Assembly (NCBI GenBank): GCA_965153355.1 | Contig: OZ231126.1 | Span: forward strand, 10,230,001 to 10,294,000 | Origin: Flaccisagitta enflata | Lineage: Eukaryota | Direction of reading: 5' to 3' | DNA length: 64,000 nucleotides | Shown here: one piece after another, positions 1,455 to 26,478 of the stretch | Layout of the letters: every line of letters begins with the position of its first letter | Numbering within the stretch: the stretch's first letter is position 1 | The notes under the pieces: generated by a model | Seen by the model: the letters and a program-made list of their open reading frames with translations, nothing else | The model's database searches: none | Told to the model about the DNA's origin: nothing | Position numbers and translations under genes: made by a program

Positions 1455-1631
1455 CTGAAATTAGGATTCAAAGGGGGGGGGGAAAGGGGGGCAGCATTTG
1501 AATTTCCCATGACTCAACGTATCCTATCTTAGTACAACTACAACCACAAGCAAGCCGTCATACATGTTCATCTACATCTGCTTTATATTCATTAATGTGA
1601 AACTCCACGATTTTTCAATGACTGACCTCTA

Positions 1632-2231
1632 CTATCTAGGAAATAAATATACGGACACCTAACCATGATTGTAGTACCTAAACCTTTATATCTGATAAAA
1701 AAATGAAAGCAGATCAACAAACTATGACAACAAATCTTCCATTCAAAAACAAGCACAGCTATGTGGCTCAATCCGTTTTCAAATGGCAGCGTTTTAGAGA
1801 AGATCTGTCATTTTACATTAGAGGATTTCAGTTCAAATCATGAATCAACAATCCACATTGAATGAGCTCTCAAATTCAAATGGATTGACCACAATCACCC
1901 TGCTTGGCCTCATTAGATCACATTTTTCACAAATTCATTGATAATTGAAAAATTTGAAGGCTGATTTTAAACGTATTGCTCTGAAATGATCCAACATCAT
2001 AAGAAAACAATACTGATTTAATGATTTTTGTTACTTTAAGAGAAATTAAGGATACGCTAGTTATAGTTGAAAAATTCTGGACCAATCCCATAAACAAATC
2101 CAAACAGGAGCACATAATAGATCAAAATACCATAAAATGACTAAAAATTGATTTATTTGATCAAATATTTCATTCAGTGAGTAAAAAGGCTAACTTTACT
2201 CCAGCTGTCCGTATATTTATTTCCTAGATAG
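1632..2231. mobile_element. Tc1/mariner-type MITE, family A
   Basis: TIR CTATCTAGGAAATAAATATACGGACA / TGTCCGTATATTTATTTCCTAGATAG with TA on both sides. It splits one copy of the 72-bp exon-derived repeat. Confidence 0.9.
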
Positions 2232-2233
2232 TA

Positions 2234-2592
2234 CATCTGCAGCATTGCCATGTGCTTTATATAATTATATATAGTCATTAATGAGAAATCCCATGACTTT
2301 TCAATGACTGACCTCTGCATCTGCAGCATTTACATCTGCTTCATATTTATTAAAGAGAAATCCTATGACTTTTCAATGACTGAGCTCTGCATCTGCAGCA
2401 TTTACATCTGCTTTAAATTCACTAATGAGATTTTCCACGACTTTTCAATGACTGACCTCTGCATCTGCAGCATTTACATCTGTTTTAAATTCATTATTGA
2501 AAAATTCCACGACTTTTCAATGACTGACCTCTGCATCTGCGGCATTTACATCTGCTTTATATTCATTAATGAGAAATTCCACTACTTTTAAG
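2234..2592 (-). repeat. 72-bp tandem repeat derived from the 3' end of ASB exon 5 plus its donor
   Basis: TGACTGACCTCTGCATC recurs at 2521, 2449, 2377 (variant) and 2305. Further copy remnants lie at 1570-1631, beyond the MITE. Confidence 0.92.
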
Positions 2593-2654
2593 TGGCCTCC
2601 GGCTGCGGCACGAATCAAGGGTGTCTCTCCGGTGCTCCTGTGACGACTTTCCAC
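2529..2654 (-). CDS. ASB-like gene, exon 5 (this frame is not in the ORF track)
   Basis: aattag|GTG... translates to VESRHRSTGETPLIRAAAGGHLKVVEFLINEYKADVNAADAE, then GAG|GTCAGT (phase 0-0). It is a textbook ankyrin repeat. Confidence 0.92.
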
Positions 2655-4098
2655 CTAATTTTGATAATAAAGAGAACAAATTGATAGAATAAAGGGAGAA
2701 TTTGTCAACAACAATTGATTTGTTTGCATATGAAAACACAGCAATGACAGCATAAAAGAAAAAAAAGAAAAACAGCAATGACAACATAAACAGTAACATC
2801 AGGCTGTAAAGTGATCAGTAGGTGAAGCATAACAAGGTCATTAGACCTAAGTCGCGTGCATCGGCATTTTCACAAGATGTCCGACAAACAGACAGGCGCA
2901 GACTAAATTTTTTTTAAAATGACCTTAAAAATTAGCCAACAACTTCTTATTGATACCCTGAAACCTTTAAAATGCCTTTGAAACGTTTGAAACGCTTTTT
3001 AAACAACTGCAACGGACAGACGGACGGACCGACGGACGGACCGAAAAGTGGCTTATAGAGTTGTGTGCTACGCGACTAAAAATGCAGATTGACATCGGTA
3101 AAAAGATCACTTATAACGTAACTTATAACGTAACGTAACGTAACGTAACTTTAGTGGCTTTCTTGTCAAATGAAGCCTTTGTGCCACACCGTCACCGACC
3201 TAAGTCCTTTCTGTTTTTGAGCTTTGGTCTTATGAAACCATTACCTGCTTCATCCCCGATGACTATAGTTGCAGCCTCACTTAAACAACCTCACTTCCAC
3301 TGCCTGATTGTGGCAAGGACATGGAGGTGGTTGACAGTGAATGAGGGCTCCGAAGATTTAGCAGTGTTCCAGTAGTCATATAGTGCAGGGTATCCATTTT
3401 TATCACTTTGGAAACAAAAGATTCTCGAATCAACGTCAATTCGACTGCCACGAATCCGTATTAAAGAGCCCCCAAAGGCAGCTCCCTCAAAGAATTCATC
3501 TCAAACTAAACAATGTTACAAAGAAGATGTGTGGCAGGGTGAGAAAAAGATTTGTTTATATCTTTGAATAATTTTATGAGTTGAGATTAATGAGCGAAGT
3601 CCAAAAAAATTTGGCGATAAATTGTGTTGAAGGCATTTTGTCATCCTAAAGTCAAGACAATCAAATTATGCTTGGTTACCTTCTTGTCCCTAAAAGGGTT
3701 TTTCTCCTTGTTAAGGTGAAAAATATCAGTTATTATTAACTACGACAATATGCAAATAAGGACTTTGGTACTACTTATTTCCATATTTTATTGACAGAAC
3801 AAAAACAAAACAGCCGAAAACATGTACACTTGTGGGTTGATGACAATGCCAAGGGCACAACGTTTTTCCTTCGTTTGTAAACAGCTTTTTAATCTACAAA
3901 AACAACAACAACGCCATCAACAACCGCAGAAACAACAAATTTTCTTTCCTCACACGTTGTAAACTACAACAAAAAAAAACCACCACCAACAACAACAACA
4001 ACAACAACAACAACAACAACAACAACAACAACAACAACAACAACAACAACAACAACAACAACAACATCAAATAAAAAAAACATTTTTTTTCTCCACAC

Positions 4099-4237
4099 CT
4101 TAGCGCCCGCGGCAGTTAGTAGTTTTACGATGCTGAAATGTCCTTCATTGGCAGCTTCCAAAAGTGGATTGGATCCATAAGACTGCACATTCGCGTCAGC
4201 ACCGCGTTTCAACAGCATCTCCACGATCTCGGCGCAC
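4099..4237 (-). CDS. ASB-like gene, exon 4
   Basis: cctcag|G TGC... translates to CAEIVEMLLKRGADANVQSYGSNPLLEAANEGHFSIVKLLTAAGAK, then AAG|GTGTGG (phase 2-0). Confidence 0.93.
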
Positions 4238-24116: not shown

Positions 24117-24319
24117 AGGGTGTGCAAAAATTGTTACACTTACACTGGAGTATGAAGCATATGAAATGCATATACTTCTAGTCAAACAAGTTGGTTAAAT
24201 CTTTAACTGCAATGTTGAGAAACTACATTAAATAATTTCATCTTGCTAGGCTTGTTGAAAGTGAACTTTTTTAACCTTAAAAACTGAAGTGTTTTTGCAA
24301 TCTTTTTTTGCACATCCTA
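24117..24319. mobile_element. Short degenerate MITE
   Basis: CAGGGTGTGCAAAAA ... TTTTTGCACATCCTA imperfect TIRs. The same terminus TTTTTGCACACCCTG occurs at about 13157-13171. Confidence 0.5.
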
Positions 24320-24360
24320 TAAATCAGCGCGGGGGTAGTTAGTCTCTCTCTTCTCTTCCG

Positions 24361-24546
24361 CTACCCGCCGCCGTCTACATTGCCACCACCACCACCACCA
24401 CTAGTCACTGTTCGCCAATACGTAGAATGAGGAAATAAATAGATGAAGCTGATGATGAGGATGAACATGTTGCCGCAAATGAATCCCAGCATCAAACTGA
24501 ATTTCACCAACGTCTGCGCCTTTCGACTCCATTTCACCGCAGATTC
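24361..24546 (-). CDS. CD225 gene, terminal exon 7 (second half of CD225 domain, TM helix)
   Basis: ttttctcag|GAA TCT... gives ESAVKWSRKAQTLVKFSLMLGFICGNMFILIISFIYLF...GGG, then TAG. It continues the CD225 'A-x-x-x-S-x-x-A' motif plus a hydrophobic helix. The joined CDS is 2247 nt. Confidence 0.88.
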   Translation of the reverse strand, partial: ESAVKWSRKAQTLVKFSLMLGFICGNMFILIISFIYLFPHSTYWRTVTSGGGGGGNVDGGG

Positions 24547-24868
24547 CTGAGAAAAAAAAATGGACAAATTAGGAAAACGCATAGCAAATTCATCTAGTGA
24601 AGAGTAATTTATTGATATAAGACAAGCTGCACAAAAGTGGGGAATGGGTTTTCTTCAATCGAGTACACGCGACTCCGCAAGTTGTTGTGTCGTTACGTCC
24701 GTTAAATCATTAACATGTAACTTGAAACATGCGGATGCCATCCTTTGATAGCGAGGGAAAGTGAAACTTTTGAGTCCGTTTTTCACAGTGGAGTTAGTGT
24801 ATGACACAGCATATAAATATTTGTCAGTGAAGTAGATCTGATGGCGTTTTGATTTGTACTTTTTTATA

Positions 24869-25472
24869 CTACCTTGGAAATAAATATATGGACAGCTGGA
24901 GAAAAGTTAGCCTTTTTACTCACTGAATGAAGTATATGCCCAAATCATTAAATTTTTAGTCATTATATGGTATTTTGATCTATCAAGAGCTTCTGTTCTG
25001 ACTTTTTATGGGATTCGTCTATGATTTTTCATCTTGAATCCGTGTATCCTTTGCCTCTCAAAAAGCAACAAAAAAATCAAAGAATCAGCTTTGTTTTCTT
25101 TTAGTACTTGATAATTTTAGGGCATTATGATTGAGTGCAGTCCTCAATTTTTTCAACAATCAAAAAATTTGTCAAAAATGTGATCTATTGAGATCAAGCA
25201 GAATGATTTTGCTCAATCCGTTTAGATTTGAGAGCTATTTCAATGTACGTTGTCCTTTGAAGATATGAACTGAAAACCTCGAAATTAGATTTTGGTAAAA
25301 TGACAGTTTTCTTCAAAACGCTCTCATTTGGAAACGGATTGAGCTACCAAGCTCTGCTTGGTCTTGAATGGAAGATTTTTTGTCATAGTTTATGGATCTG
25401 CTTTCATTGTTTTTTGGATATGAAAGTTTAGTTAATCATGGTTAGGTGTCCGTATATTTATTTCCAAGATAG
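24869..25472. mobile_element. Tc1/mariner-type MITE, family A (opposite orientation to 1632-2231)
   Basis: TIR CTACCTTGGAAATAAATATATGGACA / TGTCCGTATATTTATTTCCAAGATAG, TA flanks. The internal sequence is the diverged reverse complement of 1632-2231. Confidence 0.88.
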
Positions 25473-25625
25473 TACAATGTAGCTATGAAGCTGCTGAACA
25501 CAAATCATTAACAAACAGCAACATTTAGGCAGCGGCCTTTAGCGGCTTCCCGTTTTTGTAGCTGAAAAGGCAGGATTCGAACCCATGAAAATCTTCACTT
25601 TCCCTGTCTACCTTTGACAATCGAA

Positions 25626-26478
25626 CCTGCTGTCCAAAATGCTTGGCCTTATGGCACCGTTTGCCAAACACAATTGCCGCAACTCACCTACTGTCCAAGA
25701 TGCTTGACCTTATGGCATCATTTGTTGCAGACAATTGCCGCAACTCACCTGCTGTCCAAGATGCCTCGCCTTGTGGAATCATTGCTGCAGACAATTGCCG
25801 CAACTCACCTGCTGTCCAACATGCTTGGCATTTTGGCACCTTTTGCCGTAGACAATTGCCGCAACTCACCTGCTGTCCAAGATGCCTGGCCTTTTGGCAT
25901 TGTTTGCTGAAGACACTTGCCGCAACTCACCTGCTGTCCAAGATGCCTGGCCTTTTGGAATTGTTTGCTGAAGACACTTGCCGCAACTCACCTGCTGTCC
26001 AAGATGCCTGGCCTTTTGGCATTGTTTGCTGTAGACAATTGCCGCAACTCACCTGCCATCCAAGATGCTTGGCCTTTTGACACCGTTTGCTGCAGACAAT
26101 TGCCGCAACTCACCTGCTGTCCAAGATGCATGGCCTTTTGGCATCCTTTGCTGTAGACATTTGCTGCAGCTTACCTGCTGTCCAAGGTGCTTGGCCTTTT
26201 GGAATTGTTTTTTGCGGACAAATGCCGCAACTCACCTGCCGTCCATCATGCTTGGCCTTTTGGCACAGTTTGCTGTAGATAATTGCCGCAACTCACCTGC
26301 CATCCAAGATGCTTGGCCTTTTGACACCCTTTTGCTGTAGACAATTGCCGCAACTCACCTGCTGTCCAAGATGCTTGGCCTTTTGGCATTGTTTGCTGTA
26401 CATAATTGCCGCAACCCACCTGCTGTCCAAGATGCTTGGCCTTTTGGCATCGTTTGCTGTAGACAATTGCCGCAACTC
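25626..26478 (-). repeat. 61-bp tandem repeat (about 14 units) derived from the 3' end of CD225 exon 6 plus its donor
   Basis: GCAACTCACCTGCTGTCCAAGATGC recurs every 60-62 nt; the last unit is the coding sequence itself. Confidence 0.95.

Follow-up and report, generated by a model that had tools for sequence, protein, structure and literature searches.

Tandem duplications that span exon-intron boundaries of both types were named mirages in amphioxus; they may be general among cephalochordates, and how they arise was considered unclear (PMC3087553). The amphioxus loci are Adh3, troponin C, PGBD5 and the globins BflGb6 and BflGb9, PGBD5 and troponin C being added by the second of two reports (PMC3087553, PMC3902484). 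Mirage units are tens to about 160 bases long, occur several per gene, vary in copy number between haplotypes or somatically, and apparently leave regular splicing unaffected. In human F7, the first monomer of a 37-bp variable number tandem repeat in intron 7 spans the exon-intron junction, and the most upstream of its five to nine identical donors is the only one used, the others being functional but silent (PMC1557585). Described here are arrays of this kind in a 64,000-nucleotide stretch (the window) of the Flaccisagitta enflata assembly GCA_965153355.1 (contig OZ231126.1, positions 10,230,001 to 10,294,000; C1:10230001-10294000 in the locus names used below), with a count of such arrays in a sample of this 794-Mb, nine-contig assembly. 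Two neighbouring genes of the window, an ASB-like gene and a gene with a CD225/IFITM domain, contain three introns that begin by repeating the end of the exon before them.

The arrays share with amphioxus mirages tandem units that span the boundary, occurrence on both donor and acceptor sides, several loci per genome, and splice dinucleotides that are intact in many but not all copies (in the sample, GT in 53 of 56 decoys and AG in 39 of 42). They occur in another lineage; a CCT8 exon is 64-69% identical to named animals, with 85-99% identical relatives on short contigs. Further differences from the amphioxus mirages are a measured rate and background, the presence of a microsatellite in many units, and an exon part that centres near 60 nucleotides (nt) in donor units. 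As in F7, the first monomer holds the donor predicted to keep the reading frame and later units repeat it in three of three window arrays; F7 is one locus only, its unit is shorter, and it was tested experimentally. Variable exon-intron boundary repeats have also been counted systematically in human segmental duplications (162 alignments, 27 intron modifications; PMC2812944). That count concerns paralogs in segmental duplications and changes in gene structure, and the part of its results section covered here holds no junction-versus-intron background. Intron gain by tandem duplication likewise duplicates sequence with splice signals, but creates a new intron between the copies, whereas here an existing intron is lengthened (PMC3265369, PMC4974935). 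No new intron between copies was seen in the myosin comparison, in which array-free paralogs have identical ends to the exons concerned.

The preliminary description of the window knew of no account of such arrays as a systematic pattern. The kind is already known, as mirages and from F7; what stands of that statement is that no genome-scale count was found. A literature search with most subscription papers outside its coverage found no genome-scale rate, concentration in microsatellite-rich regions, ~60-nt donor exon part, or link between donor arrays and miniature inverted-repeat transposable elements (MITEs). The quantitative features reported here are worth a full census. Mirages were reported at a few amphioxus loci, where their origin was called unclear. 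If the present sample holds, a few percent of junctions would amount to thousands of loci, and origin and splice-site choice would become testable at scale, each array being a natural contest between near-identical splice sites. The arrays are also an annotation trap, since profile or tblastn searches took 22 decoy-like segments for exons.

Junction arrays in two neighbouring genes

The ASB-like and CD225 genes, both on the minus strand and with open spliced frames, have 13 introns in total. Copies of the preceding exon end had been reported at the start of the introns after ASB exon 5, ASB exon 3 and CD225 exon 6. All three were recovered by Tandem Repeats Finder (TRF), as a 72-bp array, a 133-bp pair and a 61-bp array of 14 units (Table 1), and by a search for copies of the 30 bases at each junction, with downstream matches of 29/30, 26/30 and 30/30, respectively. 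The repeated piece is the last 59-61 coding bases plus GT in all three donor arrays. The remaining 23 window junctions gave at most 18/30. Degenerate acceptor copies that had been reported at ASB exon 2 are supported by local alignment, in which 0 of 500 and 1 of 500 shuffles reached the score, but not by the 30-base search (15/30).

In the ASB exon-5 array, the inferred true donor follows position 2529, with GT decoys after 2457 and 2313 and a dead CT copy after 2385. Translation indicates that decoy use would run into an in-frame stop. The ASB exon-3 unit contains a GT microsatellite, and its decoy donor also gives stops. The first CD225 donor is GTGGGT (after 26420), most are GTGAGT, made of GT plus exon bases, and the last is GTTCGA. 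Ten of the 13 CD225 decoys outscore the first donor; in F7, some shift to pseudo-sites was seen when these were, as here, nearer the consensus than the first donor (PMC1557585). Donor 2 would shift the frame and donors 4-14 would meet a stop. Donor 3 (26297), whose frame is made by a 1-base insertion in unit 3, would give an in-frame, stop-free product with 41 additional residues inside the CD225 domain. The statement that intact decoys follow the true donor is mostly correct, although among the ASB exon-5 copies one has CT and a MITE interrupts another. Likewise, the first donor keeps the frame in all three arrays, as would be expected if it is the true one, but CD225 donor 3 is also in frame. 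Use of the first donor in the window is probable from the reading frame. The 6% sample of RNA run X23 contained no CD225 reads, and runs X23, X1, X3 and X10 gave two RNA reads over 23900-27700, both at a repeat. The shares of the RNA runs that fell in the window were dismissed, being accounted for by repeats.

It is scarcely credible that the arrays are assembly artefacts, a concern raised in the preliminary description. No single contig spans the whole CD225 array, but contigs of run X1 and of the independent marine metagenome X3 lie inside it with few differences, array units are about 14% divergent from each other, and a MITE is inserted inside one array. An X1 contig (window 25611-25625) fits the end of the CD225 array and not the next 106 bases, a hint of a polymorphic insertion adjoining the array.

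Frequency of junction arrays across the genome

The genome was searched with profiles of eight Pfam families, of which SNF matches enter no count. For the other seven, 393 of 686 matches were used, forming 185 merged loci over 805 kb. Adding exons found by tblastn and dropping the 22 decoy-like segments gave a set of 512 exons. Pkinase, AMP-binding and DEAD matches are mostly long single exons, and 19 DEAD loci in a repeated element served only for repeat masking and MITE counts. An ab initio set of 199 new exons (recall 318/393) was deemed unreliable, as its calls fell on decoys. An event was defined as a 30-base junction window copied at 24/30 or better within 600 bases.

By this definition, 15 of 408 donors have a downstream copy and 11 of 404 acceptors an upstream copy, and 18 of the 185 loci contain events. 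A sixteenth donor event, in a CCT gene on C4 (16/409), proved to be a transposon pair and was removed. Copies on the wrong side were absent from all sampled donors and acceptors. About 13 donor and 10 acceptor events are independent once paralogs are merged by eye, and additional arrays exist outside the formal set. By family, events were found at 14/308 myosin, 9/262 kinesin, 2/100 CCT and 1/30 kinase junctions. The preliminary description had extrapolated from three of 13 introns to a genome-wide process. The pattern is indeed genome-wide, but the donor rate is 3.7%, not 23%. The window is high in donor events (3/13 against 15/408, P 0.011), and its 3/26 junctions are ordinary for microsatellite-rich loci (P 0.21).

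The background was taken as the intronic first- or last-copy rate, which is 1.56% raw, falls to 1.34% when transposons and predicted exons are removed, and is 0.76% once short-period repeats are excluded. Against these, and with bootstrapping over loci, the pooled excess at junctions is 2.1-fold (confidence interval, CI, 1.2-3.1), 2.4-fold (1.4-4.0) and 4.2-fold (2.2-8.0), respectively. The enrichment over intronic tandem duplication that had been anticipated is therefore present (probability of a fold of 1 or less at most 0.009). The folds of 2.1 and 2.4 are compatible with 2, and a fold above 2 is obtained solely with the strictest background (probability of a fold of 2 or less, 0.015) or inside microsatellite-rich loci.

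Events are concentrated in loci with at least 10% microsatellite, measured with arrays masked and with a threshold picked after the data were seen: 25/400 junctions in these loci against 1/412 in poorer ones (locus permutation P 0.005). A microsatellite adjacent to the junction is associated with events both at donors (7/72 against 8/336 without adjacency, P 0.008) and at acceptors (6/64 against 5/340, P 0.003). The terminal tenth of chromosomes has 13/132 junctions hit, compared with 13/680 elsewhere. Microsatellites make up 15-22% of the window. Of 14 arrays with a microsatellite, about 6, judged by eye, have it solely between copies, with a motif matching the exon bases at the breakpoint, so it may be born at the duplication junction. 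In the sampled loci, microsatellites occupy 10-18% of the sequence up to 150 bases from a junction and about 10% of that 300 bases beyond donors.

One kinesin gene by a chromosome end (C1:354021-368000; L226, L075, L201) has four junction arrays, and CCT7 at C5:80.57-80.60 Mb has three. A kinase gene in a microsatellite-poor locus (L128, C5:13898238-13901699) has 15 near-identical acceptors in 63/69-bp units, a mirror of the CD225 array. Many genes form close pairs 0.1-0.3 Mb apart, some inverted (C2, C4, C5, C7, C9), that share arrays of differing copy number and are either recent segmental duplicates or uncollapsed haplotypes. Between close paralogs, copy numbers of 6 versus 4 and 5 versus 7 occur.

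Origin and persistence of the arrays

With moderate confidence, the arrays can be read as mirage-type minisatellites that arose by non-adaptive local duplication in microsatellite-prone regions, were tolerated through choice of the innermost splice site, were kept by coding constraint, and then expanded. A local copying error would duplicate 60-140 bases over an exon edge, mostly in microsatellite-prone regions, by microhomology-guided slippage, a template switch, or fill-in at staggered breaks, and a microsatellite at the intron edge would either seed the event or grow at the new junction. By geometry, the innermost copy remains continuous with the exon, which puts the decoys on the downstream side of donors and on the upstream side of acceptors. 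The innermost site may then be selected through exon definition or oriented scanning, leaving the protein unchanged so that the duplication survives, while wholly exonic duplications are purged. For CCT7 there is indirect evidence of such joining. The near-identical intronless CCT7 proteins P0127 and P0128, 2 of 10 examined proteins that cover all three CCT7 array sites, pass these sites without insertion and have the exon residues IAVK, not the decoy IVVK; the arrays may be absent from the animals these proteins come from, and minor isoforms would be invisible.

Coding constraint would hold the exon copy while decoys drift. Because one copy is frozen, the detectable lifetime of a junction duplication would about double, and an excess of about 2-fold is expected; junction duplications thus appear to persist about twice as long as intronic pairs. 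Mismatches between exon and decoy number 34/640, 47/640 and 83/640 at the three codon positions (5.3%, 7.3% and 13.0%), and this excess at third positions fits a constrained exon copy with drifting decoys. Unequal exchange or slippage may then enlarge the array.

Several observations weigh against this reading. The clustering of exon parts near 60 nt is not predicted by a slippage model. Introns beside microsatellites are hardly more duplicated than elsewhere (1.2% versus 0.7% on one side, 0.2% versus 0.8% on the other), so microsatellites alone do not explain the excess at exon edges, and the GT-side events of ASB exon 5 and CD225 are without any microsatellite. The donor fold with short-period repeats removed (4.8, CI 2.2-10.3) and the pooled fold in microsatellite-rich loci (3.3-6.7) are above 2. 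No events were found at Ras (0/69), AMP-binding (0/31) or DEAD (0/12) junctions or at ab initio exons (0/84 donors, 0/78 acceptors), and units shorter than 45 bp are not enriched at junctions (1/378 and 1/391 against 0.6%). These absences are also what would be seen if there were no junction effect, but only background duplication together with longer persistence, in a sample made up mostly of myosin and kinesin paralogs. The raw folds of 2.4 at donors and 1.7 at acceptors are in keeping with that account (probability of a fold of 2 or less, 0.30 and 0.68). It is nevertheless doubtful, as transposon pairs and junction arrays that lack annotation are part of the raw background, ab initio exons are not dependable at arrays, and neither the 60-nt mode nor the difference between locus classes is accounted for. 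It is a likelier, though still tentative, possibility that a feature of the 5' splice site sets one breakpoint some 60 nt into the exon and the other no more than about 50 nt into the intron, the candidates being the edge of an exon nucleosome, a paused polymerase or R-loop, and the spliceosome footprint. Donor-side exon parts range over 24-97 nt with a median of 60, and 9 of 16 independent donor events fall within an 8-nt span, from 56 to 63 nt (P 0.0001-0.0014 in a scan test against three nulls). Outside the window, with the earlier claim of 50-60 bases as prior, 6 of 13 fall in 55-64 nt (P 0.004-0.005), and one more event beyond the formal set has an exon part of 58-61 nt. Unit lengths themselves are without clustering, exon lengths vary widely (median 185), and the intron part is 2-46 nt in every microsatellite-free donor unit. 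These figures come from small numbers, with a detection floor of at least 24 exon bases and microsatellite-free unit lengths taken partly by eye. Moreover, acceptor-side exon parts are scattered over 22-118 nt, microsatellite-poor loci have only their single event in 412 junctions, and selection against longer pseudo-exons could likewise cap the length. In its full form, held just as tentatively, duplication would affect about 6% of junctions in microsatellite-rich regions, with the breakpoint placed about 60 nt upstream by a footprint of chromatin or co-transcriptional splicing, and the sites would draw a MITE. If true, anchoring at the donor would provide a mechanism for mirages and turn splice junctions into heritable hotspots of mutation, where introns grow longer and microsatellites and new exons are seeded.

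The two remaining explanations concern selection and transposons. It was proposed that decoys serve as tunable poison or alternative donors, and spare sites might also be U1 landing pads. The high retention of GT and AG, the CD225 decoys that beat the first donor, and the in-frame donor 3 are in line with selection, yet it is quite improbable, and no evidence for tunable donors was found. Decoy conservation is not supported as a sign of function: decoy GT is kept no better than neighbouring bases (4/112 mismatches against 6.2%, P 0.17); for AG the P value is 0.01, but with homogenised copies and an inflated comparison rate. The order of the real copy first was rejected as a sign of selection, being forced by the geometry of tandem duplication. 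Of 11 acceptor arrays, just 3 have the true acceptor as their strongest. In paralogs the corresponding junctions are free of arrays, and the CCT7 proteins show no decoy use. Less probable still is that activity of one MITE family, MITE1, breaks DNA near exons and that repair duplicates the flank. The window and 974 kb of loci yielded three copies of MITE1, all of which lie in a donor array or within about 150 bases of one, with a chance of about 1-2% for the copy outside the window. These are small numbers, two of the three were noticed post hoc, and most arrays are without MITE1. In addition, the ASB copy lies within a unit, and so was inserted after the array formed. Contig depth suggests that MITE1 is a high-copy family.

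Gene models and other repeats of the window

The coordinates of the gene models, arrays and MITEs are given in Table 1. The SOCS_box match of the ASB-like gene is weak (E 0.0044, under the Pfam cut-off), and a search for its ortholog returned long generic ankyrin proteins and nothing else. CD225 exons 1-5 are of low complexity, and the model is less certain there.

Table 1. Gene models, junction arrays and MITEs of the window, with one MITE1 copy from another locus
Feature	Position	Strand	Basis or remark
ASB-like gene (ankyrin repeats and SOCS-box-like end), 8 exons	176..7964	-	open spliced frame; Pfam Ank matches
ASB exons	7964-7892, 6329-6131, 5105-4767, 4237-4099, 2654-2529, 1454-1352, 1110-892, 597-176	-	
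CD225/IFITM-domain gene, 7 exons, 749 aa	24361..39736	-	open spliced frame; PF04505 E 3.7e-11
CD225 exons	39736-39369, 37158-36911, 34251-33916, 28537-27917, 27371-27036, 26571-26420, 24546-24361	-	
ASB exon-5 donor array, 72-bp unit (~61 coding + 11 intron bases)	2275..2589	-	TRF, sequence
Rest of ASB exon-5 array past MITE (donor copy at 1626 and partial unit)	1570..1629	-	sequence
ASB exon-3 end (last 59 coding bases, donor after 4767) and copy 133 bases on (decoy after 4634)	4634..4825	-	TRF pair at 4568-4817
Putative remnant of further ASB exon-3 unit	4340..4375	-	read from sequence
Degenerate ASB exon-2 acceptor copies, split by MITE2	6360..7450	-	local alignment against shuffles
CD225 exon-6 donor array, 61-bp unit (59 coding bases + GT), 14 donors	25625..26478	-	TRF, DNA contigs
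MITE1 copy (~607 bp, terminal inverted repeats, TA flanks), within ASB exon-5 array unit	1630..2236	.	
Second MITE1 copy, ~150 bases beyond CD225 array	24866..25473	.	
Third MITE1 copy, outside window	L192:4725-5336		
MITE2, 610-bp near-perfect palindrome (86% self reverse-complement)	6641-7250		self-match; splits ASB exon-2 acceptor copies

MITE2 had no match in the 974 kb of other loci. GT or GTT microsatellites lie at or right after the start of several ASB introns (window 6130, 4766, 4098, 891). Complex tandem arrays for which no exon was found nearby occur at 16639-17378 (154 bp), 18163-18615 (20/60), 22965-23327 (129), 55624-55884 (144 bp) and 63396-63638 (49 bp). Elsewhere in the genome, many near-identical intronless open frames with a helicase domain (L157-L175) are spread over the chromosomes and are probably a repeated mobile element.

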